Of a stretch of DNA of 64,000 nt, positions 3,290-42,406 are shown one piece after another (the stretch's first letter is position 1; the number at the start of each line of letters is the position of its first letter). The DNA is from Thermomicrobiales bacterium. Lineage in GTDB: Bacteria > Chloroflexota > Chloroflexia > Thermomicrobiales > UBA6265. The notes beneath the pieces are model-generated. The model was not told where the DNA came from. It searched no databases and was given only the letters and a program-made list of their open reading frames with translations. Position numbers and translations under genes: made by a program. The stretch is taken from positions 1,138 through 65,137 of the forward strand of contig JBHOQQ010000164.1 of assembly GCA_042408955.1 (NCBI GenBank), in the 5' to 3' direction.

Positions 3290-4219
3290 ATGAGCGCCCA
3301 CCAGACGGCCGAGACCGCTAGCCCTGCCCTAACGCGCCTCTCTCAGGAGGTGCGTATCCGCGAGGCGCCAGGATTTTACCGGCGGGGCTGGCTGCGGTTT
3401 CGCCGGGACCATGTGGCCATGGCGGCGCTGATCATAGTCCTCGTGATCGTCGCCTTCGCACTTGCCGCGCCGCTCGTCTCCCGCCTGACCGGGTTCACCT
3501 ATTACGAGAATCACCTGAAGACGAAACTGTCCGCACCGGGAGAGAACGGCTATCTGCTTGGCAGCGACGCGAATGGCCGTGACATTCTCACGCGGCTGGC
3601 CTATGGCGGCCGCATCTCGCTGCTCGTGGCGCTGTTCGGCACCCTTGCGGAGCTTGGCTTCGGCCTCGGCCTTGGCGTGATCGCTGGGTATTACGGGAAA
3701 TGGATAGACGCGCTGGTCATGCGCTTGGTTGATGTCTTGATCTCGATCCCGACGATCGCTCTGTTGATCTTGATCTCGTCGCTCTACCAACCAGGCGTGG
3801 TCATGCTCGCGCTTATCATCGGTGCCATCTACTGGCCAGGAGATGCGCGCCTAATCCGGGGTGAGGTGCTCTCGCTCCGCCACCGGGAATACATTCAGGC
3901 AGCGCACGTTGTCGGCACGCCCTCCTGGCTCATCATCCTGCGCCACATCCTGCCAAATGTCACGCCGATCCTCCTCATTCAGGCATCATTGACCATCCCG
4001 TCCGTCATCATTCTCGAATCCGTCATCAGCTTTTTGGGACTTGGGGTCCAGGTGCCGACGCCATCCTGGGGAAACATGCTTGAAGAGGCAGCCCGGTTTT
4101 ACCGAACGAATTGGACCAATGTCTTCATTCCCGGTCTGATGATTTATGTTACTTCGCTGAGCCTCTACCTGGTCGGCATTGGCCTGCGGGATGCGCTCGA
4201 TCCACGCCTTGGGGATTAG
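3290..4219 (+). CDS. ABC transporter permease (DppC/OppC-like)
   Basis: 309 aa. LGSDANGRDILTRLAYGGRISL and REYIQAAHVVGTPSWLIILRHILPNV are DppC-type signatures. Starts 6 nt after the previous stop. Confidence 0.9.
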   Translation: MSAHQTAETASPALTRLSQEVRIREAPGFYRRGWLRFRRDHVAMAALIIVLVIVAFALAAPLVSRLTGFTYYENHLKTKLSAPGENGYLLGSDANGRDILTRLAYGGRISLLVALFGTLAELGFGLGLGVIAGYYGKWIDALVMRLVDVLISIPTIALLILISSLYQPGVVMLALIIGAIYWPGDARLIRGEVLSLRHREYIQAAHVVGTPSWLIILRHILPNVTPILLIQASLTIPSVIILESVISFLGLGVQVPTPSWGNMLEEAARFYRTNWTNVFIPGLMIYVTSLSLYLVGIGLRDALDPRLGD

Positions 4220-4613
4220 CCCGGATGATGATCTGCTCGGTGCGATGCTGTCTGCTGGGACGTCGCGCGGGATGAGATCCGAAGTGTGGCAGCTACGGTG
4301 GCCTGCCGCACAGGTCGTGAGCTTCATTGCCTGGCTGCCCTCCGGATAAGGCTCAACCCGTGCGCGCGGTCCTAGAGATCCGCGATCAACCTACAACGCC
4401 TCCTAAAGAGGGCTGGAAGCGATGCGACATCCCGAATACCAGAGCCGGCTTTGTTAGGTCAGCGCGGGGACTTTAGCACCCCGCTCAAAGGCAACCCTGT
4501 TATGCTTCTGATGCTCCCGCGCTGCCGGCAGTGACGTCCTCTCAACGCGCGGCATTCTATCCTGCGTCCCATAACGCGCCTGCCGCCCGTGCGTCGTTCC
4601 GGCAGGCGCACTC

Positions 4614-5624: not shown

Positions 5625-8392
5625 TGGCAATCTCAGCAGCCCGCGAGACGAGCGTGGCGGAAGCACGATCCACGCCCTGGCATGCCCTGCCGATCGACGA
5701 GGTCGAGCGCTTGCTGGGCACGAGCAGCGCAGGACTCACCCAGCGCGAAGCGGCAGTCCGGCTCGCTCGCTATGGCCCCAATCAGATCGAAGAGGAAGCT
5801 CCGCCGAGCGACCTTGCCATCCTCTTCAATCAGGTGCGCAGTCCGCTGGTCATCACTTTGATTGCGGCTGCCGCAATCACCACCGCGCTCGGCGAAGCGG
5901 TCGATACGCTGGCGATCGCGCTGGTAGTGATCATCAACACGGTCATCGGCTTTGTTCAGGAGCGCCAGGCAGAACGAGCAGTTCATGCATTGCTGCAACT
6001 TGTTACGCCACGCGCCCGCGTCGTGCGCGAGCATCAAGACTGGGAGATCGACAGCCGCGAGGTGGTGCCAGGCGATCTGGTGCTGCTTGAATCCGGCTCC
6101 CGCGTTCCGGCCGATCTCCGCCTCGTCGCGACTACCGCCTTGCAGATCGATGAGTCCACGCTGACCGGTGAGTCGCTCCCCGTCGTCAAACGACCAGACC
6201 CGCTGCCGGAAGACACTCCGCTTGCAGACCGGACGAATCTTGCCTTTGCGGGCACGATTGTCGTCAGTGGGCGCGGGCGTGGCTATGTCGTCGCCACCGG
6301 GCGAAACACCGAGCTCGGCGCGATCGCCGGTCAGATGCGCTCTGTCGCTCGCGTGACAACCCCTCTTCAAGAGCGCATGGCTCGCCTGGCCCGCGTCGTT
6401 GGCGCGGGCGTCGCCGCTTGTGCGGCGCTCGCCTTCGCGGTTGGCATCGCGGCTGGTAGACCCGTCGCTGAGATGTTCCTCATCGCCGTCGCGCTCGCCG
6501 TCTCCGCCGTCCCCGAAGGCTTGCCAATCGCCTTTACGATCACGCTGGCGATGGGCGTGCGCCGGATGGCCCGCCGCAACGCGATCGTTCGTCACCTCCC
6601 CTCCGTGGAAACGCTTGGCAGCACGACAGTGATCGGCTCAGACAAGACCGGCACCCTGACCGAGAACCTGATGACCGTTCGTCAGATCTGGTCCGCAGGC
6701 ATGCGCATCGCGGCAGAGAATCCGGACCGGGAGCTTCTCATCAGCCAGCCAGCACGCGACGCCCTGGCGCACCTGGATACGGCTGACTCGCTGCTGTTGA
6801 CGCTGCTGACAGGCATCCTGACGAACGAAGCCACGGTGTCCCGCACGGCCGGCGGCTTCGACATCAAAGGCGATCCGACCGAAGCCGCCCTGCTCATTGC
6901 GGCCTTCCGCTTTGGCCTGGAGCCGGATGAGATTCAGGAGGCCCTGCCGGTCTTCGCCGAAATCCCCTTCGAGCCAGAGCGCCAGTATTCCGCCAGCTTC
7001 CGTCTCTGGAATGGTCGTCTTGTTAGCTTCGTCAAGGGAGCGCCGGAGCGCGTGCTTGCCATGAGCAGCACGATGCTAACTGCACATGGCCGAGAGCCAC
7101 TCGATCCGGCCCTCATCCAGGATACGGCTCATGCGCTCGCGTCCGAGGGTCTGCGCGTCCTGGCCATGGCCTACGCCATTCTGCCTCCCGGTTCGCATGA
7201 TCCCGAAGGGCTTGGAGAACCCCGGAATCTCACCTTCGTTGGACTGCAGGGCTTGGCAGACCCGCCAAGAACGGGAGCCCGTGAGGCGATTGCTCAATGC
7301 CGGGACGCGGGCATCCGTGTCATCATGATCACCGGCGACCATGCCGCAACGGCCCGGGCGATCGCCCGCGAGCTTGGCATCGCCGGATCCGATGCGCCGG
7401 TGCTAACCGGGGTAGATCTGCAAGGCTTGGACGACGAGCACCTCTGCGAAGCGGTGCGCCACGTGGATGTCTACGCCCGTGTCACTCCCGAGCACAAGCT
7501 GCGCATCGTCAAGGCGCTGCAGCGCCATGATGAGGTCGTCGCGGTGACTGGTGACGGCGTCAATGACGCTCCGGCCTTGCGAGCCGCCGACATTGGCGTC
7601 GCCATGGGGAAGCGAGGCACAGATGTGGCCAAGGAAGCCTCGGACATCGTCTTGGCCGACGACAATTTCGTCACCATAGTCTCGGCGGTCGAAGAGGGTC
7701 GCATTACCTTTGACAATGTACGCAAAGCGGCCTCGTACTTGTTCGCAACGAACGTGGCCGAGGTGCTCACCATTCTTGTCGCGCTCGCCCTGAACTGGCC
7801 GCTTCCGCTCATCGCGGTGCAGATCCTCTGGCTTAATTTGGTGACCGACTCGGCACAAGTCTTGGCGCTCGCGGTCGAGCCCGGAGAGCCTGATGTCATG
7901 CGCCGCCCGCCACGTGGCCGGGGAGCCGGCGTGTTATCTCGCCGGCTGTGGGAGCGGGTCGTGCTCAGCGGCGTGGTGATGACGATCGGGACGCTCGTCC
8001 TGTACCGGTGGGATCTCAGCGCCACCGGCTCGGAGACGCACGCACGGACAATGGCGCTCACCACGATGGTTATGTTCCAGATGTACCAAGCGGCGAACAT
8101 GCGCTTAGAGACACGCTCGCTGCTCCAGATTCCGCCGTTGTCCAATCCGTACCTGTTCGCCGCGATCGCCGCCTCGCTCGCGATTCACCTATCCGCGCTC
8201 TACATTGGCGTCACGCAGACGCTGCTCCGGGTCGAGCCCATTGATCTGATGACCTGGGCGCGCATCATCCTTGTCGCGGCTACGATTCTGATCACGGTCG
8301 AAATCCACAAGCGGATCCGCCGCGCCGATCCCGAGCTTGCGCCGCGCAGGTACGCGGCAGCGCCGGAGAAGCGGGTAGGGGCTAGGGGCTAG
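5624..8392 (+). CDS. P-type ATPase, type II (Ca2+-ATPase-like cation pump)
   Basis: 922 aa. LTGESLPV (actuator), SDKTGTLTEN (phosphorylation site), MITGDH, VTGDGVNDAPALRAADIGVAMG. Strong SD AGGAGGAGG (5612-5620). Confidence 0.9.
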   Translation: MAISAARETSVAEARSTPWHALPIDEVERLLGTSSAGLTQREAAVRLARYGPNQIEEEAPPSDLAILFNQVRSPLVITLIAAAAITTALGEAVDTLAIALVVIINTVIGFVQERQAERAVHALLQLVTPRARVVREHQDWEIDSREVVPGDLVLLESGSRVPADLRLVATTALQIDESTLTGESLPVVKRPDPLPEDTPLADRTNLAFAGTIVVSGRGRGYVVATGRNTELGAIAGQMRSVARVTTPLQERMARLARVVGAGVAACAALAFAVGIAAGRPVAEMFLIAVALAVSAVPEGLPIAFTITLAMGVRRMARRNAIVRHLPSVETLGSTTVIGSDKTGTLTENLMTVRQIWSAGMRIAAENPDRELLISQPARDALAHLDTADSLLLTLLTGILTNEATVSRTAGGFDIKGDPTEAALLIAAFRFGLEPDEIQEALPVFAEIPFEPERQYSASFRLWNGRLVSFVKGAPERVLAMSSTMLTAHGREPLDPALIQDTAHALASEGLRVLAMAYAILPPGSHDPEGLGEPRNLTFVGLQGLADPPRTGAREAIAQCRDAGIRVIMITGDHAATARAIARELGIAGSDAPVLTGVDLQGLDDEHLCEAVRHVDVYARVTPEHKLRIVKALQRHDEVVAVTGDGVNDAPALRAADIGVAMGKRGTDVAKEASDIVLADDNFVTIVSAVEEGRITFDNVRKAASYLFATNVAEVLTILVALALNWPLPLIAVQILWLNLVTDSAQVLALAVEPGEPDVMRRPPRGRGAGVLSRRLWERVVLSGVVMTIGTLVLYRWDLSATGSETHARTMALTTMVMFQMYQAANMRLETRSLLQIPPLSNPYLFAAIAASLAIHLSALYIGVTQTLLRVEPIDLMTWARIILVAATILITVEIHKRIRRADPELAPRRYAAAPEKRVGARG

Positions 8393-8437
8393 AGAAGGTG
8401 CCAGCTACGAGCGACGAGCGATCAGCGGTCAGGAGTC
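8373..8437 (+). repeat. Composite G-tract / AGCTxCGAGC / GTCAGGAGTC element (short copy) overlapping the ATPase stop codon
   Basis: GGGTAGGGGCTAGGGGCTAG (the stop TAG 8390-8392 is inside it), then AGCTACGAGCGACGAGCGA (8403-8421), then GTCAGGAGTC (8428-8437). The same word set occurs at 22080-22136 and 40131-40224. Confidence 0.5.
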
Positions 8438-8954
8438 GCAGGAGGGTGATGCATCGCCCCCTGCCCGCTCACATCCGTCAGACGGCATCGCACGGGGCCA
8501 ACTCCCTCCCTCGCTGCGCTTGGGAGCAGGCTCAGCAAAGGAAGCCGGCGAATGCCGGCTGTACCGGCGGGATATGAGACTCCTCGGCCGCGCCTCGGAA
8601 TGACGGTGATGGGAACGCTTGCGGCAGGGGTGATGCCGACCGGGAAAACGTCAGGCGGGTGCCGAGCGATGATGTTGGTCGAGTACAGGCATGACCAGAT
8701 GCCGCGTCGCCTGGGCTGATCGCGGTGGAGTCTGGACGCCGCGCGGACACGATCCGGAGACGGTGTGACCGTCAACAGAGCATAATCGCCAGGCCGCACC
8801 AGCACGGACGGGGTCACGATGCGGGGCACGATTCCATGAGGACGGACACGGCGCGACGCAGTTTTGCTGTGCCGCTCACGTTACACGTTGTAAACTTCGT
8901 TCTGAGCTTGGCTGACGTGCCACATGCTGGCTCAACCGTATCATCGAACTCGTT

Positions 8955-9707
8955 GTGTCTGAGGTTGGTGGCCGACTGAACGTCGAAACGGTCAGTTCTT
9001 CACGCGCCCAGGAGACTGCGCGGCGCCGCGGCGGCCGACACCGCGCCCTGCGCCCAGAGAGGACCGAAGGTGCCGCAGGGCGTAGCGGTGCGTTGTCGCG
9101 CACGAGTGCTGTGGGTGCGCTGCTGACCATCGTCGCTCTTGGCTTAGGCGCCGCGGCGATCGTGATGATGATTCGTGAGCGACCGCCAGATCATGATTCG
9201 CCGGAAGTTGGATTCGCCCGCGACATGATCTTGCATCACGAGCAAGCGGTTCGGATGTCGCTGCTCCTGCTCGATCGTACCGAAGATCCCGCGATCCGCG
9301 GTCTTGCAAAGGACATTCTGCTCAGCCAGCAGAACCAGATCGGACTGATGACCGGCTGGCTCGATGCATGGGACGTGCCGCTGATTGGTGACGATGCGCC
9401 GATGGTCTGGATGGGACACGCTGGGCCGATGCCAGGGATGGCGACACGCGAGGAGCTGGCGACCCTGTCGACGCTCCCACTGCCTGAGGCCGAGATCCAG
9501 TTCCTCCGCCTCATGATTCGCCATCACCAGGGTGCTATCCCGATGGCCGAGGCGATCCTCTCGCGGACTGACCGGGAGCAGGTGCGCCGCCTGGCCAAAG
9601 GCGTCATTGCCGCGCAGCGCACGGAGATCGCATACATGCAGGAGCTTCTTGCGCAACGGGGAGTCACCGAGGGCAGCGCCGCTACCCCCACTGCCCACGA
9701 TCACTAG
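8955..9707 (+). CDS. DUF305-family protein (copper-associated four-helix-bundle protein), membrane-anchored
   Basis: Two DUF305 half-motifs, FARDMILHHEQAVRMS and FLRLMIRHHQGAIPMAEA, follow one hydrophobic span (VGALLTIVALGLGAAAIVMMI). The GTG start at 8955 is uncertain. Confidence 0.75.
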   Translation: MSEVGGRLNVETVSSSRAQETARRRGGRHRALRPERTEGAAGRSGALSRTSAVGALLTIVALGLGAAAIVMMIRERPPDHDSPEVGFARDMILHHEQAVRMSLLLLDRTEDPAIRGLAKDILLSQQNQIGLMTGWLDAWDVPLIGDDAPMVWMGHAGPMPGMATREELATLSTLPLPEAEIQFLRLMIRHHQGAIPMAEAILSRTDREQVRRLAKGVIAAQRTEIAYMQELLAQRGVTEGSAATPTAHDH

Positions 9708-31071: not shown

Positions 31072-31199
31072 GGGGAGTAGTACCAGCATTGGTTGCCGAT
31101 AGGAACGCATCCCTTCCATGATACCGTTGACGTGAGTGAGGCAATGGGAAAGGACACTTTGCCTCATCACGTGTGTTGGGGCGCCGGCAGCGATGCCGG
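31072..31199 (+). promoter_or_regulatory. Structured 5' leader upstream of the K+ uptake operon (riboswitch candidate, class unresolved)
   Basis: GGGGAGTAG (31072-31080), TTGACGTGA (31127-31135), a 14-bp stem ACGTGAgTGAGGCAA/TTGCCTCATCACGT (31130-31172), and CCGGCA-GCGA-TGCCGG (31184-31199). The operon start follows 15 nt later. Confidence 0.3.
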
Positions 31200-31213
31200 T
31201 GCAGTGGGAATCA

Positions 31214-31909
31214 ATGATGACGCACGAGCGTAGTGGTGTCGGCGGCCGGATTGCCGTCATTGGTCTTGGCCGGTTTGGGCGCAGCGTCGCCAAGACGTTG
31301 CACGATCTTGGTTACGAAGTTACTGCCATCGATTTGGATGAGCGGCGCGTTGAGGAGGCAAGCAACTTTGTCGCCTTGGCAGCTCAGGGCGATGGAGCCG
31401 ATGAGGATTTGCTACGCTCACTCCAAATCGATCGCTCGGCGGTCGCGATCGTCGCCCAAGGGAGCAATCTGGAAAAGAGTATCCTTTCCACGCTTATTCT
31501 CAAGCGGCTTGGCGTGAAGTCGGTCATCGCCAAGGCGAATAATGAGCTGCACGGGGAAGTGTTGCGTAGGATCGGCGCCGATCGCATCATCTTCCCGGAG
31601 CGGGACGCAGGTGTTCGCCTGGCGCACACACTGGCAGTTCCTCGCATTGATGACTATATTTCACTCTCTCCGACGAGCGGAGTCGCCAAATTCGCCGCTC
31701 CGCCCCATTTTCAAGGCCGCACGCTGAGCGATGTTTACGCGGCCTGCGGAGCGAACCTGAGTGTGTTGGCCATCAAGCGTGGGCAGCATCTCATCACTAC
31801 CCCGTCGTTCTCCGAGCGCATCCAGCGCGGTGATGAGCTGATCGTTGCCGGGCCAGATGCGGCGATCGAAGCCTTCGTTGAGTCAGGAGCGCCTGAGGGG
31901 ACGACGTGA
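31214..31909 (+). CDS. TrkA/KtrA-type K+ uptake regulatory subunit (TrkA-N plus TrkA-C)
   Basis: RIAVIGLGRFGRSVAKTLHDLGYEVTAIDLDERRV (Rossmann GxGxxG). C-terminal TrkA-C-like LSVLAIKRGQHLITTPSFSERIQRGDELIVAG. ATG 31214; the track start is GTG 31136. Confidence 0.85.
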   Translation: MMTHERSGVGGRIAVIGLGRFGRSVAKTLHDLGYEVTAIDLDERRVEEASNFVALAAQGDGADEDLLRSLQIDRSAVAIVAQGSNLEKSILSTLILKRLGVKSVIAKANNELHGEVLRRIGADRIIFPERDAGVRLAHTLAVPRIDDYISLSPTSGVAKFAAPPHFQGRTLSDVYAACGANLSVLAIKRGQHLITTPSFSERIQRGDELIVAGPDAAIEAFVESGAPEGTT

Positions 31910-33351
31910 GCGACGCCGCATCTCGGCACCGCCCGCCGGAAACCGTGCTGCGCCGGCGCATTCGGGAGCCGGTCATCATCGAGCTGCCGCCGCCCCCCCA
32001 GCCCCCAGAGCTTCCTCATCCCCGCCGCCACGCGCGGACATTCATCTTATCCCTGGCCGCCATCGTCGCAATTGGCGCGGCCTTGCTCGCAACGCCATGG
32101 ACAACGCGCAGTGGCACGGCAACGCATCCCGTGGATGCGCTCTTTACCGCTGTCTCCGCGACGGCGGTCACCGGGCTGGTGACGGTTGACACCGCCACTC
32201 ACTGGAATGCCTTCGGGCAGGCAATCATCCTCTTGCTGATTCAGGTGGGTGGCCTGGGCTTCATGGTAGGCGCCAGCATCGTGTTGCAGGCGCTTCGGAG
32301 AGGAACGACGCGCCTCAGCGATCTGCTCCTCGTCAAAGAGGGGGGGCCGGAGCTTTCGCTAAGGGAAGCGGTGGTGTTGTCGCGCCAGATCGTGATTTTC
32401 ACCCTGGTCACGGAGAGCGTGGGCGCGCTGGCGCTCTCGCTGGCATTTTGGGGTGAGATGCCATTCCCCCAGGCACTGTGGCACGGCGTCTTCCATGCTG
32501 TATCAGCGTTTTGCAATGCCGGCTTCGACCTGCAAGGCAATTTCGCCTCGCTTGCACCCTATCAGACCTCGCTCGTCGTCAATCTCGTGATTATGGCGCT
32601 GATCCAAGCGGGATCGTTGTCCTATATGGTGCTCGCGGACGTGGTCAGAACCCGCCGCTGGGCCGATTTCGCGCTGGATACCAAGCTCGTCTTGATCCTC
32701 AATGCCATGCTCGTCGCCGGAGCGGCAGGCGCCTTTCTATTGGCCGAGTGGCGACGCGCTCTAGCGGATGTCCCGCCCGCCTACCGGCCCTTGGCTGCGC
32801 TATTTCAGAGTATCTCGGCCCGGACGGCGGGCTTCGCGACGGTCGATTTCAGCAACTTACACCTCGTGACGCTCTTCGTCTGGATCGGGGTGATGCTCGT
32901 TGGAGGAGCGTCCGGCTCGACCGCAGGTGGGGTGAAACTGACGACCCTCGGCGTGATTGCCATCGCGGTGGTGTCTAGCTTGCGCGGGCAGGAGGAGCCT
33001 CAGATTTTTGGCCGCAGGATTCCGACGGCGATGATCTTCCGCGCCATGGCCGTGGTCACGTTGATGATGACGGTGCACTTCGTGGCAACCGCGTTGCTCG
33101 CGGTCACCGAGGATGTGTGGGGGCGGGAGGATCTGAGCTTTATCGCGATGATGTTCGAGACGATGAGCGCACTCGCAACGGTCGGCCTGTCGACCGGTAT
33201 CACTCCCTCCCTCACCGACCCAGGCAAGCTGGTGCTGTGCGTCGTGATGTTCTTCGGACGCCTTGGCCCACTCACCGCGGCCTATGCGCTGCAACGGCGC
33301 CAGCGCGCTGCGCGGTCCCGGTTCCCGGTCGCGCAATTGCGGATTGGTTAA
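31906..33351 (+). CDS. TrkH/KtrB-family K+ transporter membrane subunit
   Basis: 481 aa, many spans. Repeated selectivity-filter-like segments (QVGGLGF, NAGFDL, RTAGFAT, TVGLSTG). GTGA overlap with the upstream gene. Confidence 0.85.
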   Translation: MSDAASRHRPPETVLRRRIREPVIIELPPPPQPPELPHPRRHARTFILSLAAIVAIGAALLATPWTTRSGTATHPVDALFTAVSATAVTGLVTVDTATHWNAFGQAIILLLIQVGGLGFMVGASIVLQALRRGTTRLSDLLLVKEGGPELSLREAVVLSRQIVIFTLVTESVGALALSLAFWGEMPFPQALWHGVFHAVSAFCNAGFDLQGNFASLAPYQTSLVVNLVIMALIQAGSLSYMVLADVVRTRRWADFALDTKLVLILNAMLVAGAAGAFLLAEWRRALADVPPAYRPLAALFQSISARTAGFATVDFSNLHLVTLFVWIGVMLVGGASGSTAGGVKLTTLGVIAIAVVSSLRGQEEPQIFGRRIPTAMIFRAMAVVTLMMTVHFVATALLAVTEDVWGREDLSFIAMMFETMSALATVGLSTGITPSLTDPGKLVLCVVMFFGRLGPLTAAYALQRRQRAARSRFPVAQLRIG

Positions 33352-33837: not shown

Positions 33838-34677
<840 letters not shown>

Positions 34678-34721: not shown

Positions 34722-35726
34722 TTATCGTCCTGGCGAGGGATGGGCATGGGCCGTGGCCCGCTCATCCTCCGTGGCGTGTGCTAGCGTGGCAGAGCGCCTG
34801 GCAGCAGGGGCCGCTCGCTCGGCGCGCACCCCCGCGGTGCTTCCCCGGCGGGCCAGGCCGATCCCTGCAAAGACAAGCACAGTTCCCACGAGTTGGCTCA
34901 GGCTCGGTGTCTCATGCAGAAAAACCAACGCGAGGACGCCGGTGAAGACCGGAATGAGGTAGAGGTACGGCACGGTTCTACCAACGCCGCGCCGTTCGAT
35001 TGCCCATCCCCAAAGTGTGTAGGCGACAAGCATAGAGATAACCCCGGCATAGGCGATGGCAACCCACCCCTTGAGGCCGACGTGCGCCCAATCTTGCCGC
35101 AGCAATGCCGGGAACGTTACGGGCAGAACCGCCGCAAGTCCAATGAGCACCGACCAGGCGGTCACGATCTGCGAGCCGTAGGTGCGCACGATTGGCCGGG
35201 TAGCGATCCCGTACACGGCAAAACAGATCGCGGCCAGCAGGTTGAGTGCATCGCCTGTGGCTGGCTTGCCCATGGCGAGCTTATTCCCGACGAAGACGGC
35301 GGTACCGAGCAATGCGCAGGCAACGCCGAGCCACTGGACCGGACGAATCCGTTCCAGCTTCATCGCCGAGGCAATCAGCAGCGTAAACACTGGACCCAGG
35401 GAGACGATGATAGCCGCGGAAAAGGCCGAGGTGTGCGCTAACCCGACGATGAAGAGCAAATTGTAGGCGGCATAGCCGGTCATGCCAGTAAGCACAAACT
35501 TCGGCACATCCTCCCGGCGGATGCGAAGCTGTGCCTTGCGCCAGCCCAACCACCCAAAGAGTACAACGGCTACGATGAGGAAGCGAAGCGCGACATAGCT
35601 AAAGGGACTGAGGCGCTGATTGAGAATGGATTTGGTCAGGACGTTGTTTCCGGCCCAAATGGTCGCGACGACCAGCATCGCACCATCGGCAATATCGACA
35701 TTTGCCGGAATCGAACGGCGCTTCAC
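34722..35726 (-). CDS. EamA/DMT-family transporter
   Basis: 334 aa, about 10 spans in two EamA-like halves (VATIWAGNNVLTK..., LLAAICFAVYGIATR...). Confidence 0.8.
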   Translation of the reverse strand: MKRRSIPANVDIADGAMLVVATIWAGNNVLTKSILNQRLSPFSYVALRFLIVAVVLFGWLGWRKAQLRIRREDVPKFVLTGMTGYAAYNLLFIVGLAHTSAFSAAIIVSLGPVFTLLIASAMKLERIRPVQWLGVACALLGTAVFVGNKLAMGKPATGDALNLLAAICFAVYGIATRPIVRTYGSQIVTAWSVLIGLAAVLPVTFPALLRQDWAHVGLKGWVAIAYAGVISMLVAYTLWGWAIERRGVGRTVPYLYLIPVFTGVLALVFLHETPSLSQLVGTVLVFAGIGLARRGSTAGVRAERAAPAARRSATLAHATEDERATAHAHPSPGR

Positions 35727-35827: not shown

Positions 35828-36742
35828 TCAGGATGTGGAGGGGAGATAAGGGCGGAGCGCGCCGCTCTGCGACGGTAGCAACACGCCTTCGTGCGCGAGG
35901 AGACGTTGCTTGATCTCGATGCCGCCAGTGTAGCCTCCCAACGACGCATCGGAACGCACAACCCGGTGGCAGGGAACGACGATCGGAATCGGATTGCGCC
36001 CGAGCGCGTTGCCGACTGCGCGCATCGCTTCCGGACGTCCAATACGGTGCGCAATGTCGCGGTAGGTGGCAAGATGGCCGAACGGGACTTCGCTGGTTGC
36101 CGCGAGGACCGCGTGCGTGAAGGGGGAGACACCGGAAAGGTCGAGCGGAACCTCAAAACGGTTCCGCTCTCCCCGAAAATACTCTGAAAGCTGCCGGATA
36201 ATCCCCTCGACGCCATGCCGATCAGCAGCAGGGAAAAACCCCCGGCGTTCCAGTTGGCGGCGGAATCCCTCCTCAGTCTCCTGCGTACCAAACCCGATCT
36301 CGCAGACACCGCGGTCACTGGCAGCCACGAATAACGGACCAATGGGACTCTCGATCCGCGCATAGCTGGCGCGACGTCCGCGCTTTGCCAGGAATCGGAG
36401 CGGAGGGGGAGAACATTGCTCACCTTCGACAACGCGCATGAGGCGATTAAGCGCGGCATCCACAAGCTGGTATTTGGTCAACATATCGTGGCAGTAGCCA
36501 CAGTGACTCGCATGCTGCAAAATCCACTCTACGTCCCGCGGCTGCAAATCCTTCACGAGCAGGGCAGGCATGGCGTCGCAAGCAATATCGCAGACATCCA
36601 TGCCCGGCTGGTTAGCAACACATGCGAGATCGGAAGAAGGAACCACTGCAACTGTCTTTCGCTTCCGGGACATCGCCTGAGATTTGTGCGGATTCCGGCT
36701 CGTGACAAGGTGCGTGGTCATGGCTAATTCCATCCTGCTCAT
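35828..36742 (-). CDS. Fusion protein: ZAS (zf-HC2) anti-sigma domain plus complete O6-alkylguanine-DNA alkyltransferase (Ogt/MGMT)
   Basis: One uninterrupted 304-codon ORF. N-terminus: CDIAC...ALLVKDLQPRDVEWILQHASHCGYCHDMLTKYQL (H77-x3-C81-x2-C84, nt 36491-36514). C-terminus: YARIESPIGPLFVAASDRGVCEIGFG...TYRDIAHRIGRPEAMRAVGNALGRNPIPIVVPCHRVVRSDASLGGYTGG. No hydrophobic span. Confidence 0.8.
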   Translation of the reverse strand: MSRMELAMTTHLVTSRNPHKSQAMSRKRKTVAVVPSSDLACVANQPGMDVCDIACDAMPALLVKDLQPRDVEWILQHASHCGYCHDMLTKYQLVDAALNRLMRVVEGEQCSPPPLRFLAKRGRRASYARIESPIGPLFVAASDRGVCEIGFGTQETEEGFRRQLERRGFFPAADRHGVEGIIRQLSEYFRGERNRFEVPLDLSGVSPFTHAVLAATSEVPFGHLATYRDIAHRIGRPEAMRAVGNALGRNPIPIVVPCHRVVRSDASLGGYTGGIEIKQRLLAHEGVLLPSQSGALRPYLPSTS

Positions 36743-36787
36743 CGCTGCGGGTCGGTGCGGATGGACGCCCCGTGACGCCCATTCCGT

Positions 36788-37354
36788 TTAGAGACGGTCA
36801 CCAAAGCGCTCCCGTAATTTCCGCAATGCTTCATGAACGTTAGCACGGGCAGCCGCCTCACTGCATTTGAGTGTGGCTGCAATTTCGTCATACCCCATAT
36901 CGTGATATTTGCGCAAGATTAATGCCACACGCTGCTTGGCTGGCAAGCCCAGAATAAATTCCCGGATCTCCATCAACGTGTCTCTCGCATCCAAGCTCGC
37001 CGCTTGGTCGAGCTCACCAGCTGGCACATTGGCCTCAACGTCCGCATCGAGCGGGCCTTCACGGCTCGCCTTGCGCCGGTTGCTCAGGAATGTGTTGGTC
37101 ACGATCCGGTAGAGCCATGCCCGGTGGTTTGCTGCGCCATCAAGCCGGTCAAATGCTCGGTAGGCTTTCAGCATCGTATCTTGATAGAGATCGTCCGCGT
37201 CGGCCCGGTTCCGCGTGAGATGGAGCGCAAACCGGTAGATCTCGGCCTGATATCGCTCAACCAGGTCCGCGAAGGAGAGAATGAGCGCACCCGCCGCGTC
37301 CGGGCGCGCCGCGCTTGCATCCGCAACTGGATTGCTGACCGTGAGCTGCGTCAT
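36788..37354 (-). CDS. ECF-type RNA polymerase sigma-70 factor
   Basis: 188 aa. Region 2 IYRFALHLTRNRADADDLYQDTMLKAYRAF..WLYRIVTNTFL. Region 4 RVALILRKYHDMGYDEIAATLKCSEAAARANVHEALRKLRE. Confidence 0.9.
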   Translation of the reverse strand: MTQLTVSNPVADASAARPDAAGALILSFADLVERYQAEIYRFALHLTRNRADADDLYQDTMLKAYRAFDRLDGAANHRAWLYRIVTNTFLSNRRKASREGPLDADVEANVPAGELDQAASLDARDTLMEIREFILGLPAKQRVALILRKYHDMGYDEIAATLKCSEAAARANVHEALRKLRERFGDRL

Positions 37355-37644
37355 ACCTGGCGGTGCTCCCTCGGTCTCCTGCCTCGGCCGTCCATCGTCC
37401 AGAGGCGTTGCTACCCTTATAACTCATGCAGACCGGATTGTGTGAGCCGGTAGGTGACATGACCGTTGCGTGCGCAGGCGCTCCTGGCGTTTGCTTGCCG
37501 TGTCGAAATCACTCTCTCATCCTGGTAAGATTCTCTCACATCGCTCGCTATCGTCTCGCATGGAGCCTGATACCACAATTACTGGTACCGAGGAGCACGT
37601 CCTGGCGCTCGCGCCGAACCGATCGTCGTGTGAGGAGACACTAG

Positions 37645-38277
37645 ATGGGCGCAACGCACCGACACATCCAGCTACCTCATAGCCCTGCACGACACGCTGC
37701 GCTGTTGGTGCTGCTGGCGACGCTGTTTTTCGGTGGGGGATTCGCCGCGGGTCAGGCGCGGCCAGCTTCTCCTCAGCCAGGCCGCTTCGATCTGGAGCAA
37801 GTTGCCACCCCAGCCGCTGGCGGTATCGCCCTCGTCACTGCGGAGCAGGTGCTTGCGGCCGATCCGCGAAGCTACGTTCTCATTGATGTGCGCGGGAGAG
37901 ACGCGTACAACTTCGCCCATGCCATCAGCGCGATCTCCATGCCCGAGGCAGAGATGACGAGTCAGGTCGCAAGCCTGCCGCGGGATCGAACATTAGTACT
38001 CTATTGCACCTGTCCCGATGATAAGACCAGCCTTCGCGCAGCCCGCACCCTGGTGAGTGTGTTTCATCTCGATCATCTCGTGGTGCTGACCGGTGGCCTA
38101 CTCGCCTATCGCCATGCGGGCGGGGCGCTTTCCAGCGATGCGACCGACTCAGCCATTGAGCACCAAGGCTGCGGCTGCAATACGAATGCCCCGGCCTTCA
38201 AGCTCTGGGCGATCAATCAGGCGGAGGCGCGGCTCGAACAGCGTCAATCCCAAGGCACCAAGGAAGACACTCCATGA
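37645..38277 (+). CDS. Rhodanese-like domain protein with N-terminal signal/anchor
   Basis: YVLIDVRGRDAYNFAHAISAISMP...RTLVLYCTCPDDKTSLRAARTL...LTGGLLAYRHAGG matches the rhodanese fold pattern. Strong SD GAGGAGA before the ATG. Confidence 0.65.
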   Translation: MGATHRHIQLPHSPARHAALLVLLATLFFGGGFAAGQARPASPQPGRFDLEQVATPAAGGIALVTAEQVLAADPRSYVLIDVRGRDAYNFAHAISAISMPEAEMTSQVASLPRDRTLVLYCTCPDDKTSLRAARTLVSVFHLDHLVVLTGGLLAYRHAGGALSSDATDSAIEHQGCGCNTNAPAFKLWAINQAEARLEQRQSQGTKEDTP

Positions 38278-38366: not shown

Positions 38367-40127
38367 ATGGTCAAATCTCACACGCCGGAATCTCCACCAG
38401 AGCGGCTGCCCGCGCCGGCGCCGGAGGCGGTAAGTGAGGAAGCTCAGAAGGCACGCCTGTCCCGGCGGACCGTCCTCCGCGCCGGTGCTACCGCTGGCGT
38501 CATTGCCGCTGGCGCCGCCGGGTTTGCCCTTGGCGCCCGTCAACGTCGCTCGGCGGCATCCGTCATCAAGGGGCCGCGAGCGCATGAGCTGCGCGCCGCC
38601 CGCCAGGCCGCAAACGTCCTCGTCGCCGGCTGGGAGGAGGACGCTGCCACGCTGGACCCTGCAAAGACGATCTGCGGGCATGAGGTGCGCATCGTTAATC
38701 AGTTCGCCAATACCCTCTGGGGCCTGGAAGGCAGTAGCACGGAAGTGACTCCGATGCTTGCCGAGAGCTGGCAAGCTTCCCCAGACGGGTTGGTGTGGGA
38801 CGTCAAGCTCAAGCCCAACCTGATCTTCCAGGACAATACCCCGGTCGATGCCGCTGCCGTCAAGTGGAGCTTCGATCGCTTCCTAGACGAGAAGCATCCC
38901 TTCTACGATCCGCCATACAACCTGCTGAGCTACTACCTTGGTGGACCAGGTATCAACAAGGGCATTGCTACCGTCGAGGTGGTTGATTCCCTCGCGCTGC
39001 GGTTTACGCTCAAAGCGCAGGACCCGACCTTTCTGACCAGCATGTCCACAGGCTATGCGGCCGTCGTCTCGCCCACAGCGTTTCAGCAGCTTGGCAAGGA
39101 AGGTTTTGCCCAAAAGCCGGTCTGCACCGGGCCGTTCATGGTCACCAACTGGGAGAAGGGGGTCCGCATCGTCCTGGATCGCTTCGATGGGTTCTGGGGC
39201 GAAAAGGCCAAGGTCGATCAGCTCATCATCCGGCCGATCGTCGAAAATGCGGCCCGGCTCGCCGCGCTGCAGCAGGGCGAAGTCGACTTCATCGTCGCGA
39301 TGAGCCCGGAGTTCATCCCGGTGATTAAGAGCGATCCGAACCTCCAGCTCCTCGAAGCACCGGGGTTTCACATCTGGTGGATTGCGCTCAACGTTCATGT
39401 TCCACCGCTTGATAACGTGAAAGTCCGGCAGGCGCTAAATTACGCAATCGACAAGCAGGCGATCATCGACACCATCCTTCAAGGCGCGGCAACCATTACG
39501 AACGGACCGATCATTGGCCATTCTTGGGCCAACGACCCAAATGTGCAGCCGTACCCGTACGACCCGGAGAAGGCCAAAGCGCTGCTCGCCGAAGCCGGAT
39601 ATCCCGATGGCTTCTCGACCAAGTTTTGGGTTCCGGAGTCGGGTTCTGGCATGATCGCGCCCAAGGAGATTGGCCAGGTCGTTCAAGCCCAGTTGGCTGA
39701 GATCGGCGTCAAGGCCGAAATCGTCACGCAAGAATGGACGAGCTACGTTGCCGACTGGCAAAACAAGGGGTTGGACGCTGGCCCCTACGGCATGGCGGAG
39801 ATGAGCTGGAACTTTTCGTCGCCGGATCCTGCCGAATGGCTCAATCCCAACGTCCGCACGGACGCCCATCCACCGGGAGGTGGGTTCAACGGCGGCTTCT
39901 ACTCCAATCCGCAGGTCGATGAGCTGCTGCAAAAGGCCATGGAGACGTTCAACCGCGACGAGCGGGCTGCGCTCTACAAGCAAGCGCAGGCAATCATGCG
40001 GGAGGATTGCCCTTGGATCTTCATGTTCAGCGCAAATAACATCGCGGCGGCGACGGCCCGCCTTAAAGGCATCACGCTCAACTCCGATCCGTCGGTGGTG
40101 AGCTTGAACTTGGCCTACTTCGAGTAG
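38367..40127 (+). CDS. ABC transporter substrate-binding protein, family 5 (peptide/nickel type), Tat signal
   Basis: 586 aa. Twin-arginine leader LSRRTVLRAGATAGVIAAGAAGFALGA. Family-5 blocks (FQDNTPVDAAAVKWSFDR, PYDPEKAKALLAEAGYPDGF). Confidence 0.9.
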   Translation: MVKSHTPESPPERLPAPAPEAVSEEAQKARLSRRTVLRAGATAGVIAAGAAGFALGARQRRSAASVIKGPRAHELRAARQAANVLVAGWEEDAATLDPAKTICGHEVRIVNQFANTLWGLEGSSTEVTPMLAESWQASPDGLVWDVKLKPNLIFQDNTPVDAAAVKWSFDRFLDEKHPFYDPPYNLLSYYLGGPGINKGIATVEVVDSLALRFTLKAQDPTFLTSMSTGYAAVVSPTAFQQLGKEGFAQKPVCTGPFMVTNWEKGVRIVLDRFDGFWGEKAKVDQLIIRPIVENAARLAALQQGEVDFIVAMSPEFIPVIKSDPNLQLLEAPGFHIWWIALNVHVPPLDNVKVRQALNYAIDKQAIIDTILQGAATITNGPIIGHSWANDPNVQPYPYDPEKAKALLAEAGYPDGFSTKFWVPESGSGMIAPKEIGQVVQAQLAEIGVKAEIVTQEWTSYVADWQNKGLDAGPYGMAEMSWNFSSPDPAEWLNPNVRTDAHPPGGGFNGGFYSNPQVDELLQKAMETFNRDERAALYKQAQAIMREDCPWIFMFSANNIAAATARLKGITLNSDPSVVSLNLAYFE

Positions 40128-40130
40128 GTG

Positions 40131-40224
40131 TCAGGAGTAGGGAGTCAGGTGTTGGTTGTTCGGGGTTAGGGGCTAGGGGCTGGGGGCTGGGGGCTAGGGG
40201 AGCTTCGAGCTCCGAGCTTCGAGC
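40131..40224 (+). repeat. Composite G-tract / GAGCTTCGAGC element (largest copy) just after the stop codon
   Basis: TCAGGAGTAGGGAGTCAGG. Then six G4-5 tracts with 2-3 nt loops (40162-40200: GGGGTTAGGGGCTAGGGGCTGGGGGCTGGGGGCTAGGGG). Then the direct repeat GAGCTTCGAGC-TCC-GAGCTTCGAGC (40200-40224). Confidence 0.6.
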
Positions 40225-40254
40225 CACGGGCTTTCGGCCGTCAGGTGTCAGCTT

Positions 40255-40433
40255 TCAGCCGATGGCCGATAGCCAAGAGGTGGTAGGGGCGCGATGAATC
40301 GCGCCCATCCATAATGGGGAAGGGGCAGGACCTGTGCCCTTGCGCAGGGGTCAGGAGTCAGGGGTCGGGGGCGGGGAGCACGGATGCCTCATGGCTGTCT
40401 GCTATCGGCTATTGGCTATCGGCCATCGGCTGA
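40255..40433. repeat. 179-bp element bounded by a perfect 20-bp inverted repeat (MITE-like or long stem-loop)
   Basis: TCAGCCGATGGCCGATAGCC (40255-40274) is the exact reverse complement of GGCTATCGGCCATCGGCTGA (40414-40433). The interior has the palindrome GGGCGCGATGAATCGCGCCC, another G-tract run (40347-40376), and GCTATCG-like heptamer repeats (40401-40433). Confidence 0.5.
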
Positions 40434-40516
40434 TAGCGCAGGAGCGCACAGGTCGCTTCCCTGCCGCGCCGGCTCATCCCTAGACCCTCGATTGACTCCC
40501 CAACCGGAGTATCTGC

Positions 40517-41467
40517 ATGACGATCGTTCTCCTTCGCCGCATCGTCTGGATGGTGCCGATCCTGCTTGGCGTGTCACTGATCGTGTTCTCGATGATGCAC
40601 CTGGCACCTGGCGATCCGGCCGAGGCGATCCTTGGTCCGCGCGGAACCGAGGAGTTGCTTCGCCAGGCGCGTAAGGATCTGGGATTGGATCGCCCGCTGT
40701 ATGAGCAATATGGCCGCTGGCTGCTCAACGCGGTCCAGGGAGACCTGGGAGAATCGTACCGGCTGAATCGTCCAGTTGCGGATGAGGTCCTTGCCCGGTT
40801 TAAGAATTCGGCCATCCTAGCTTCGGTCGCCTTTGTGGTGGCGGTCGCCCTGGGCATTCTGGTTGGTGCGCTCTCAGCGGTGCGCCGGGGCGGCGTCATC
40901 GACAACGCGCTGATGGCGATCACCCTCACCGGGATTTCCATGCCGCCTTTTTATCTCGGAATGCTGTTGATCATCCTGTTCTCCGTCAAGCTCGACCTGC
41001 TCCCCACGGGTGGCATGTACGATGTTCGGCAGGACCCATCCTTCCGCGGGCTTGTTATCCACCTGATTCTTCCCGCGTTCACCTTAGCGGCTGTGCCGAT
41101 CGCGGTTATTGCCCGCATCATGCGGTCCTCTATGCTCGAAGTCGTTGGGCAGGACTACATTCGCACAGCGCGCGCGAAAGGGTTGGCCGACCGTGTGATC
41201 ATCGCCCGCCATGCCCTGCGCAATGCGCTGATCCCGGTCGTGGCGGTGGTCGGGTTGCAAATCGGATATCTGCTGAGCGCCACGGCGCTGGTGGAGGTCG
41301 TCTTTTCCTGGCCGGGTCTTGGCTCGCTCTTGGTCCAGTCAATCGTTCAGCGCGACCTGCCGCTGGCGCAGGGAGCCGTCTTGCTGATTGCCGTGATTTA
41401 TGTAATCGTCAACATCGCGACCGATCTCATCCAAGCGTTGCTCGATCCACGAATCCATTTTGCCTAA
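40517..41467 (+). CDS. ABC transporter permease (DppB/OppB-like)
   Basis: 316 aa. LLRRIVWMVPILLGVSLIVF and DYIRTARAKGLADRVIIARHALRNALIPVV. Confidence 0.9.
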   Translation: MTIVLLRRIVWMVPILLGVSLIVFSMMHLAPGDPAEAILGPRGTEELLRQARKDLGLDRPLYEQYGRWLLNAVQGDLGESYRLNRPVADEVLARFKNSAILASVAFVVAVALGILVGALSAVRRGGVIDNALMAITLTGISMPPFYLGMLLIILFSVKLDLLPTGGMYDVRQDPSFRGLVIHLILPAFTLAAVPIAVIARIMRSSMLEVVGQDYIRTARAKGLADRVIIARHALRNALIPVVAVVGLQIGYLLSATALVEVVFSWPGLGSLLVQSIVQRDLPLAQGAVLLIAVIYVIVNIATDLIQALLDPRIHFA

Positions 41468-41485
41468 TTCAGTCGCAAGGAGTGC

Positions 41486-42406
41486 TTGGCTCGCATGGTG
41501 GTGTCGCGGACAGGAACGTTTGCCGAGACTCGGGACGCAGCCGCCCTGCGGGAGCATATCCCGTTCAGCCGCCAGCACCCTGTGTTGTGGCGGCTCTGGC
41601 GGCGCAAGCTTGGGCTGGTAGGCCTTGCCATCGTGGTTTTGGTCACGCTGGCCGCGGTGTTTGCGCCCGTTATCGCGCCGCACGATCCACTCCAGCAATC
41701 GCTGACGAACCGCTTCGCTGGCCCCGGAAGCTCAGGTTACCTGCTTGGCGCGGACGCATTCGGCCGGGATATCTTGAGCCGCCTTATCTATGGTGGCCGG
41801 ATCAGCCTCGCGGTTGGCTTTAGCGCCAGCGTCATCGCCCTTGGCTTTGGCGTTCCGCTCGGCATGCTCAGCGGCTATCGCGGTGGCTGGCTCGATTCAC
41901 TGCTGATGCGGCTGGTGGATATGATGCTGGCCTTCCCGTACATCCTCTTGGCCATTGTGATTGTTGGGGCGCTCGGCCCAGGTTTGCGCAATACGCTGAT
42001 TGCGATTTCGGTGACGAGCATCCCCTTTTACCTGCGCATCATGCGCAGCGCCGTGCTCTCGGTGAAGAGCTTGACCTTCGTTGACGCGGCCCGAGCGATC
42101 GGCGCTTCCGATGCGCACATCATGCGCACCGCGATCCTGCCAGCCATCCTTCCCTATGTCATCGTCGCCTTCACGATCAGCGTGGGATGGCTGATTCTGG
42201 AGGCGGCTGGGCTAAGCTTTCTTGGTCTGGGCGCGCAGCCGCCTGACCCTGAGTGGGGCGCGATGCTCTCGGAGCACCGTCAGTACATCACTATCCATCC
42301 GCATACGGTGTATATTCCCGGACTCCTCATCCTCATCGTTGTGATTGGGTTGAATCTATTCGGTGACGCATTACGTGATGCGCTCGACGTCACGTTGAAG
42401 GATTGA
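41486..42406 (+). CDS. ABC transporter permease (DppC/OppC-like)
   Basis: 306 aa. LGADAFGRDILSRLIYGGRISL and TFVDAARAIGASDAHIMRTAILPAILP. Confidence 0.9.
   Translation: MARMVVSRTGTFAETRDAAALREHIPFSRQHPVLWRLWRRKLGLVGLAIVVLVTLAAVFAPVIAPHDPLQQSLTNRFAGPGSSGYLLGADAFGRDILSRLIYGGRISLAVGFSASVIALGFGVPLGMLSGYRGGWLDSLLMRLVDMMLAFPYILLAIVIVGALGPGLRNTLIAISVTSIPFYLRIMRSAVLSVKSLTFVDAARAIGASDAHIMRTAILPAILPYVIVAFTISVGWLILEAAGLSFLGLGAQPPDPEWGAMLSEHRQYITIHPHTVYIPGLLILIVVIGLNLFGDALRDALDVTLKD

Follow-up and report, generated by a model that had tools for sequence, protein, structure and literature searches.

A putative zinc-binding anti-sigma domain fused to an O6-alkylguanine-DNA alkyltransferase behind an ECF sigma factor in Chloroflexota: a candidate alkylation-responsive switch

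The DNA considered here is a stretch of 64,000 nucleotides, referred to below as the window, from a Thermomicrobiales bacterium of the phylum Chloroflexota (GenBank assembly GCA_042408955.1, contig JBHOQQ010000164.1, positions 1,138 to 65,137). On its reverse strand it carries a gene for an extracytoplasmic function (ECF) sigma factor, directly followed by a single open reading frame (ORF) in which a putative anti-sigma domain of the zinc-associated anti-sigma (ZAS) subclass is joined to a complete O6-alkylguanine-DNA alkyltransferase. The fusion is real and conserved in Chloroflexota, and the system is a real, conserved and uncharacterised variant of the sigma/anti-sigma switch. The reading proposed here is that of an autoregulated ECF sigma/anti-sigma operon, whose product is a two-part cytoplasmic anti-sigma factor with a competent alkyltransferase, and in which alkylation of the acceptor residue, Cys258, frees the sigma factor; we judge this reading to stand at about an even chance of being right. 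Bacteria rely on ECF sigma/anti-sigma pairs as one of their chief kinds of signalling device, many groups of which have no known input signal; in the present case the candidate for the input domain is an enzyme of fully understood chemistry, which is consumed once per lesion, so that the hypothesis is directly testable.

The sigma factor gene and the fusion gene

The sigma factor gene (36788..37354, reverse strand) codes for a protein of 188 amino acids, in which Pfam profiles identify Sigma70_r2 at residues 31-98 (E=1.7e-18) and Sigma70_r4_2 at residues 128-180 (E=5.6e-13); the NCBIfam model TIGR02937, sigma70-ECF, is matched with 99 bits, the cutoff being 42.9. The protein is thus built of regions 2 and 4 only, in about 190 amino acids, as is characteristic of the ECF (group 4) sigma factors. 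None of the NCBIfam subfamily models reached its own cutoff against this sequence, and the nearest solved structures are SigH and SigE from M. tuberculosis, SigR from S. coelicolor, and SigW.

The fusion ORF occupies 35828..36742 on the same strand and comprises 304 codons from its first ATG, with no internal stop; this ATG lies 45 nt beyond the stop of the sigma factor gene, a spacing of 45-66 nt being obtained depending on the start that is chosen. The true start is probably M8, the third ATG, at 36721, which gives a protein of 297 amino acids, since M8 is kept in at least 90% of the homologues and an identical database protein (P0001) is 297 amino acids long; the choice between M8 and the first ATG has no effect on the finding of the fusion. 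The highest Kyte-Doolittle mean over 19 residues is only 1.0, hence no membrane span is expected and the protein is predicted to be cytoplasmic. An AlphaFold2 model of the monomer has a mean predicted local distance difference test score (pLDDT) of 87.5 and a predicted template modelling score (pTM) of 0.68. Upstream of the anti-sigma domain, residues 1-35 (36638-36742, reverse strand) form a basic and disordered tail, with pLDDT <50, which may act as a degron or make contact with DNA; its length varies among the homologues, reaching 130-200 low-complexity residues in P0063, P0065 and P0068. An earlier, sequence-only reading of this DNA had already described an ECF sigma factor with regions 2 and 4 at 36788..37354, one uninterrupted ORF of 304 codons starting 45 nt past it, and the lack of any hydrophobic span, from which a cytoplasmic location was proposed; the profile searches, the exact coordinates and the hydrophobicity values agree with it on each of these points.

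The two halves of the fusion protein

The anti-sigma domain spans residues ~48-105 (36428..36601, reverse strand) and is modelled as three helices bearing the ZAS ligands C51 (codon 36590-36592), H77 (36512-36514), C81 (36500-36502) and C84 (36491-36493), the last three forming an H77-x3-C81-x2-C84 motif whose codons cover 36491..36514. These four residues are invariant in 119 aligned full-length homologues, and their spacing, C-x25-H-x3-C-x2-C, is that of the zinc ligands C11/H37/C41/C44 of RsrA (PMC3177212). The Pfam zf-HC2 profile is matched individually by 23 of 28 homologues, with a best E of 3.3e-7. When a profile of the N-terminal region was compared with solved structures, the top three matches were RsiW (E=0.0013), RslA (0.0054) and DdvA (0.023); in an exhaustive search of 1.8 billion representative proteins, the same profile retrieved the fusion family first, followed by proteins with zf-HC2, often repeated, and RseA_N domains, these multi-zf-HC2/RseA_N proteins being matched at E=1e-10 to 1e-5. 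In the AlphaFold2 model the N-terminal region has a pLDDT of 89.8, with helices at residues 50-62, 68-80 and 82-105 (full-length numbering), each of the four ligands lying where a helix ends; the model shows no clear fourth helix, the segment between the domain and the start of the alkyltransferase being helical only at residues 116-119. In a Foldseek comparison with the PDB, the 12 best-ranked structures are without exception class-I anti-sigma domains in complex with ECF sigma factors (MucA, RslA, DdvA, RskA), at E-values of 1.1 or worse, and structures of ChrR appear at ranks 17 and 22. At the level of the family, the invariant ligands, the zf-HC2 matches in most of the homologues compared, the profile matches and the predicted three-helix fold together support the assignment of the N-terminal part to the class-I anti-sigma domains of the ZAS subclass, as a putative binder of sigma factor and zinc.

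The remainder of the protein is an alkyltransferase of two domains, an N-terminal, ribonuclease-like domain at residues 127-202 (36137..36364, reverse strand; PF02870, Methyltransf_1N, E=4.5e-10) and a C-terminal DNA-binding and catalytic domain at residues 207-287, containing PCHR (35882..36124, reverse strand; PF01035, DNA_binding_1, E=5.7e-33), both scoring above their own gathering thresholds in Pfam; the NCBIfam model TIGR00589, ogt, gives 106.9 bits against a cutoff of 46.4. M. tuberculosis OGT (4bhb, E=2.7e-26), the C-terminal part of E. coli Ada (1sfe, E=4e-24) and human AGT (1eh6) all align to the region across its entire length. The acceptor motif is IVVPCHRVV, with C258 (codon 35969-35971) as acceptor; in the 119 sequences C258, P257, Y227, R241, N250 and E285 are invariant, while H259, R260 and Y271 are found in at least 90%. 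Except for P257, these residues (C258, Y227, R241, N250, E285, H259, R260, Y271) are the counterparts of C145, Y114, R128, N137, E172, H146, R147 and Y158 of human AGT. As judged from these residues, the alkyltransferase half appears complete and catalytically intact in all 119 members. Both Ada_Zn_binding and the AraC-type helix-turn-helix (HTH) domain of Pfam are absent from the window fusion. A further cysteine, Cys147 (36302-36304, reverse strand; in GVCEIGF), located in the first alkyltransferase domain, is shared by at least 90% of the members of the fusion family. The corresponding domain of human AGT contains a structural zinc site, and no ligand set matching that site is evident in the first alkyltransferase domain of the fusion.

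The zf-HC2/ZAS signature with its upstream cysteine, the full two-domain alkyltransferase starting at about residue 125, and Cys258 as the acceptor had all been recognised in the sequence-only reading: the signature is borne out at the level of the family, the alkyltransferase by the profiles and structures listed above, and the codons of the H77-x3-C81-x2-C84 motif and of Cys258 lie at the nucleotides that had been given for them.

Conservation of the fusion and its linkage to the sigma factor

Protein clusters of the fusion family were collected from NCBI, JGI, ENA and Logan assemblies. The best 120 matches to the full-length query are nearly all 230-330 amino acids long and cover 76-98% of it, with few shorter fragments or long N-terminal extensions; the names given to the homologues in their sources are only those of methylated-DNA-protein-cysteine methyltransferases. 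A search with a divergent member added ~90 further clusters, for a total of more than 200, of 260-330 amino acids and covering both halves. When a peptide pattern from the N-terminal part was sought in 185,579 species genomes, 30 loci were identified, all of them in Chloroflexota (Thermomicrobiales, Sphaerobacteraceae and 'Chloroflexia' metagenome-assembled genomes), and in each of the 30 an orthologue of the window sigma factor (61-77% identity) is found directly upstream on the same strand. The reverse test started from the sigma factor: its alignment was run against metagenome contigs, and the best 80 of the 501 relatives found were retained; 49 of these 80 had at least 1 kb of downstream sequence, and both halves of the fusion follow the sigma factor gene in 49/49. 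The fusion is uninterrupted in all 79 loci with enough downstream sequence. The association of the fusion with an adjoining ECF sigma factor, for which a genome survey had been suggested by the sequence-only reading, is therefore confirmed by both the genome and the metagenome loci. In divergent members the sigma factor gene and its partner overlap by 4 nt. When actinobacterial members were sought with the most divergent fusion, P0166, every match with a named source came from Chloroflexota.

In one locus, L034 (3638-4603), the fusion is broken by an in-frame TAA in place of the Tyr codon of CxYC, and the second Cys is changed to Ser; the contig has ~3x coverage. A natural split arrangement, with a sigma factor, a 99-residue ORF and a 200-residue alkyltransferase, was considered for this locus and rejected, given the position of the TAA within CxYC, the adjacent Cys-to-Ser change and the ~3x coverage; the break looks like gene decay or a sequencing error and not like an ancestral split.

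The promoter of the sigma factor gene

Upstream of the sigma factor gene a two-block motif, [A/G]TCTCAC[A/G]-N14(15)-[G/A]CGTT, is present in all 28 loci with enough upstream DNA, located 64-129 nt before the start of the gene; shuffled controls gave a support of at most 4/29. The ECF-type promoter consensus may also be written as ATCTCACA-N14-GCGTT, and in the form TCTCAC-N16-CGTT it occurs in 81 of 120 fetched loci, as a single copy in each and always on the sigma strand. The conserved motif is predicted to be an autoregulated ECF promoter with a -10 element of the 'CGT' type. The promoter-like site of the window (37421..37447, reverse strand) is degenerate, reading GCTCACA...AGTT instead of TCTCACA-N15-CGTT; it is in register with the sites of L001 and L035, and its position weight matrix (PWM) score is 13.1, compared with 20-31 for the others. 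The nearest relative, L035, likewise deviates in the -10 block (CGGTT).

A proposed alkylation switch

From the architecture, the conservation, the linkage to the sigma factor, the promoter and the catalytic residues described above, we infer sigma binding, zinc binding, sigma release and a regulon, which could be combined as follows. In the undamaged cell the N-terminal domain would hold the sigma factor. Once O6-alkylguanine is present in DNA, the C-terminal domain would repair it and the alkyl group would be transferred irreversibly onto Cys258; the spent protein would be partly unfolded, with loss of the contact between the N- and C-terminal domains of the alkyltransferase, and would either let the sigma factor go or be degraded. 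These outcomes are suggested by the direct joining of the alkyltransferase N-terminal domain to the anti-sigma helices, and by the unfolding of alkylated enzymes. Published biochemistry shows that alkyltransferases are destabilised by alkylation, which breaks the contacts holding the N- and C-terminal domains together, lowers the melting temperature by 20-35 C in the case of S. solfataricus, and marks the human alkyltransferase for degradation (PMC10779285); by analogy with such destabilisation, sigma release on alkyl transfer is plausible. The free sigma factor would then transcribe its own operon from the TCTCACA-N15-CGTT promoter, with production of fresh repair protein, which is at the same time fresh anti-sigma factor, and of the products of two downstream genes, an EamA-family transporter and a polyphosphate kinase 2 (PPK2). 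About one sigma factor would be freed per lesion repaired, and the response would shut off as unspent protein builds up; as sigma and anti-sigma factors would be co-transcribed, the response would be proportional to the lesions repaired and self-resetting.

A broader version of this proposal is put forward more tentatively, as somewhat short of an even chance: the suicide repair enzyme would be the sensor of the anti-sigma factor and, by releasing one sigma factor for each O6-alkylguanine, would act as a self-resetting damage counter, providing a second, Ada-independent adaptive response; it would also be the missing regulator of sigma factors resembling the published group ECF122, in which an alkyltransferase with a vestigial N-terminus would itself bind the sigma factor. 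If true, control of a sigma factor through consumption of its regulator by repair would be a new principle, Chloroflexota would possess an alkylation response independent of Ada, and a published orphan ECF group would be explained; moreover, the system would offer to synthetic biology a compact, orthogonal and chemically triggerable (SNAP-tag-like) sigma switch.

Variant loci and the part that senses

Weaker matches to the fusion are alkyltransferases of 200-232 amino acids with differing N-termini. P0371 has a short ZAS N-terminus (zf-HC2, 22 bits); P0352, P0358, P0363 and P0370 have an anti-sigma-like N-terminus devoid of the His and of both Cys; P0366 and P0353 have only ~38 extra N-terminal residues. 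Compared by hhalign with the profile of the ZAS domain, the N-termini without zinc ligands give a probability of 76% (E=2.4e-5), and PCHR is kept in all the variants with altered N-termini. All variants with a readable contig lie directly behind an ECF sigma factor gene, often with overlapping stop and start: these pairs are located at L033 3516-4606, L118 147-1224, L119 2275-3616 and L120 2447-3699. Their sigma factors are divergent, that of L033 being 29% and that of L118 38% identical to the window sigma factor, and 50% identical to each other. Upstream sites are found in L118 (ATCTCACA-N15-ACGTT) and in L120 (TTTCACA-N15-CGTT). What is constant across the wider family is therefore a sigma factor with an alkyltransferase as its next gene, bearing the catalytic Cys, together with the promoter type in the two variant loci that have a clear site.

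Judged by these sequences, the wider family can do without the zinc site and also without the greater part of the anti-sigma domain. Since the variants lose the zinc ligands and never the catalytic Cys, the repair domain is favoured as the part that receives the signal, which suggests that it is the constant sensor. The coupling of alkyl transfer to sigma release, which the sequence-only reading had put forward as a possibility, gains in plausibility from this comparison. The pairs of L033, L118, L119 and L120 probably correspond to the published 'no anti-sigma' group ECF122, and their organization suggests that in them the alkyltransferase itself is the regulator.

Weighing of alternative explanations

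A reading in which the single ORF is an artefact of assembly or annotation, joining a small ZAS anti-sigma factor to a stand-alone ogt gene, could appeal to L034, with its low coverage and its halves separated by an in-frame TAA; the stop of L034, however, replaces a Tyr inside CxYC beside a Cys-to-Ser change, as expected of decay or error, and the more than 200 independent clusters and the uninterrupted fusion in all 79 informative loci make this explanation extremely improbable. A different possibility is that the zinc-thiolate of the ZAS domain is the sensor, as in RsrA and RshA: an attack on the ZAS cysteines by oxidants or by soft electrophiles, among them alkylating agents, would lead to loss of zinc and release of the sigma factor, the alkyltransferase being a fused effector whose own alkylation is irrelevant to signalling. 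The invariance of the ZAS ligands in the Chloroflexota family and their RsrA-like spacing would fit such a sensor, as would the presence, among the closest solved sigma factors, of SigH and SigR, which are controlled by thiol-type anti-sigma factors. It is also textbook knowledge that in E. coli Ada a zinc-cysteine site serves as methyl acceptor. Zinc raises the reactivity of thiolates to electrophilic oxidants and alkylating compounds; the redox sensitivity of ZAS proteins, however, is ascribed to acidic residues and a Leu flanking two of the Cys, namely E39, E40, L45 and E46 of RsrA (PMC3177212), and these determinants are absent from the fusion, which reads HASHCGYCHDM in the window and HTxxCxYCxxxL in the family. 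Furthermore, the pairing persists in relatives that lack the zinc ligands or even the greater part of the domain, with the promoter motif kept in L118 and L120, and nothing in this explanation accounts for the strictness with which a suicide enzyme is fused; we therefore hold a thiol sensor to be unlikely.

Slightly less probable again, in our estimate, is an arrangement that senses no damage at all, in which the alkyltransferase is cargo: the anti-sigma domain would fix the ratio of sigma factor to repair protein by constitutive negative feedback, or would be removed by a general protease or by an unrelated input, or else the repair domain would park the sigma factor on the chromosome. By default, ECF systems co-transcribe their sigma and anti-sigma factors in a fixed ratio; the tail of residues 1-35, disordered and basic, could be a degron, and neither EamA nor PPK2 is specific to alkylation. 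This explanation is opposed by the strict retention of an intact suicide enzyme across deep divergence, while the anti-sigma part degenerates, and by the Ada gene that adjoins the system in L002. The contrast between the conserved and the decaying parts is explained neither by a thiol sensor nor by an arrangement without sensing.

Several observations weigh against release of the sigma factor by alkylation of Cys258, or at least against its operation in the window as described. The first concerns the anti-sigma domain, for which the sequence-only reading had proposed profile searches with both zf-HC2 and the alkyltransferase models: the latter matched the 304-residue protein clearly, while zf-HC2 was matched by 23/28 homologues and not by the window copy, which scores 12.7-13.2 bits, below the gathering score of 22.2, in an alignment that spans all 35 positions of the profile; since the window copy falls under this threshold, the assignment rests on evidence at the family level. 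The Foldseek E-values for the anti-sigma fold are 1.1 or worse, and thus not significant alone, and the putative binding of the domain to the window sigma factor rests on sequence and on monomer models. As for the promoter, G replaces the first T of the -35 block in the window site, and A replaces the C in CGTT, both positions being otherwise invariant in the 28 loci; the deviation could represent a weakened promoter, a clade-specific change of specificity or a sequence error, and the operon copy in the window may be weakly expressed. A regulon extending beyond the operon is not indicated by the sites that were sought: a second site with the exact consensus was found within 6 kb in none of 30 loci, and no other site with a PWM score of at least 14 was found in the 64-kb window, where shuffled windows give 0-1. 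Finally, no part in the repair of alkylation damage is apparent for either EamA or PPK2.

Relation to known systems

The group ECF122, from the 2021 classification by Casas-Pastor et al., is listed in a 2022 review as having no cognate anti-sigma factor, a 6-O-methylguanine DNA methyltransferase as conserved neighbour, and an unknown mechanism (PMC8999054). Compared by group description only, it resembles the window family in the linkage of the sigma factor to an alkyltransferase (30/30 and 49/49 loci), and pairs such as L033 and L118, which have no recognisable anti-sigma domain, fit that description; however, ECF122 is listed as lacking an anti-sigma factor, and the example given for it comes from an actinobacterium (Cellulomonas, WP_057211282.1), whereas the window system carries a ZAS domain on the alkyltransferase and belongs to Chloroflexota.

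With the RsrA-SigR and RshA-SigH pairs, the window system shares a soluble ZAS anti-sigma factor with C-x25-H-x3-C-x2-C ligands, the gene for which comes right behind that of an autoregulated ECF sigma factor; unlike the fusion, RsrA consists of one small domain and detects thiol oxidation by its own Cys, while the fusion is devoid of the redox residues and includes a repair enzyme of 180 residues. ChrR, which controls SigE in Rhodobacter sphaeroides, binds the sigma factor through an N-terminal ZAS domain, and its C-terminal domain is needed for the stress response. The fusion has the same layout of a soluble two-domain anti-sigma factor, with an N-terminal ZAS domain followed by a C-terminal one, but in ChrR the second domain has a cupin fold, which is connected with the sensing of singlet oxygen, and is not an enzyme consumed by its substrate. 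In E. coli Ada, the irreversible transfer of an alkyl group to Cys acts as a transcriptional switch inducing the same protein, and the C-terminal domain of Ada is homologous to that of the fusion. Ada, however, uses an N-terminal Zn(Cys)4 site and an AraC-type domain to activate sigma-70 promoters, both of which are missing from the fusion, which would instead sequester a sigma factor; the window fusion is thus at most a functional analogue of Ada and not a member of its family.

Alkyltransferases are known in fusions with Ada domains, with EndoV and with a histone-like domain, AGT-EndoV, ATL-EndoV and AGT-2 of C. elegans being among the known fusion proteins (PMC10779285). In AGT-EndoV, ATL-EndoV and AGT-2 the alkyltransferase is likewise joined to a second function, but the partners there are repair or chromatin domains. 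The 2023 review of the alkyltransferase family makes no mention of a fusion with a sigma or anti-sigma factor (PMC10779285), and a search of the full-text literature for anti-sigma or ECF factors with alkyltransferase, methylguanine or alkylation damage found no study of a ZAS-alkyltransferase fusion or of its function. The view of the sequence-only reading that the fusion and the switch are undescribed is consistent with these searches; the association of a sigma factor with an alkyltransferase, on the other hand, is not new, having been noted already for ECF122 (PMC8999054). What appears to be new is the explicit anti-sigma domain on the alkyltransferase as a missing link, while the components, the sigma-alkyltransferase linkage and the existence of soluble two-domain anti-sigma factors were already known.

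Downstream and neighbouring genes

Two genes follow the fusion on the same strand: an EamA-family (DMT) transporter (34722..35726; Pfam EamA, E=3.1e-48) and PPK2 (33838..34677; Pfam PPK2, E=1.4e-72), the last gene of the likely unit. In 11 of the 30 genome loci, and also in L035-L037, EamA is the next gene after the fusion and has the same orientation, while a downstream PPK2 on the same strand occurs in 15 of the 30, and also in L035; one or both are present in this orientation in 22/30 genome loci, both together in 4. The intergenic gaps in the window measure 101 nt between the fusion and EamA and 17-44 nt between EamA and PPK2, and no terminator-like sites were found in either. EamA and PPK2 are thus probably in the same operon as the sigma factor and the fusion, in agreement with the suggestion made from the sequence alone. 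Synteny with the window is complete in its closest relative, L035 (GCA_900174565.1), which has a divergent rhodanese gene, the sigma factor, the fusion, EamA and PPK2, and convergent TrkH/TrkA genes.

In L002, a full-length Ada of 365 amino acids (7967-9064, forward strand; Ada_Zn_binding, AraC HTH and alkyltransferase) is encoded directly after EamA on the same strand, which ties the cluster to the alkylation response; a similar alkyltransferase match occupies the equivalent position in L003 (~3925-4425, forward strand), and by similarity it is probably also Ada. The L002 genome and, if the match in L003 is Ada, that of L003 as well would hold the classical and the sigma-linked systems side by side. 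All-against-all clustering of the ORFs in the 30 loci, which is noisy in high-GC DNA, added no conserved neighbours beyond EamA and PPK2, and no Rfam family was matched in the window.

On the other side of the sigma promoter region, and divergent from it, a protein with a rhodanese domain and an N-terminal hydrophobic segment is encoded at 37645-38277 (forward strand); the 290-nt intergenic region between this gene and the sigma factor gene may hold two divergent promoters, in an arrangement common to L035. It is followed at 38367-42406 (forward strand) by a peptide-type ABC transporter (SBP_bac_5 and two permeases), identified by synteny with L035. At the opposite end, TrkA/TrkH potassium-uptake genes (31136-33351, forward strand) converge on PPK2; they are kept in L001, L035 and L036 and are apparently unrelated to the system.

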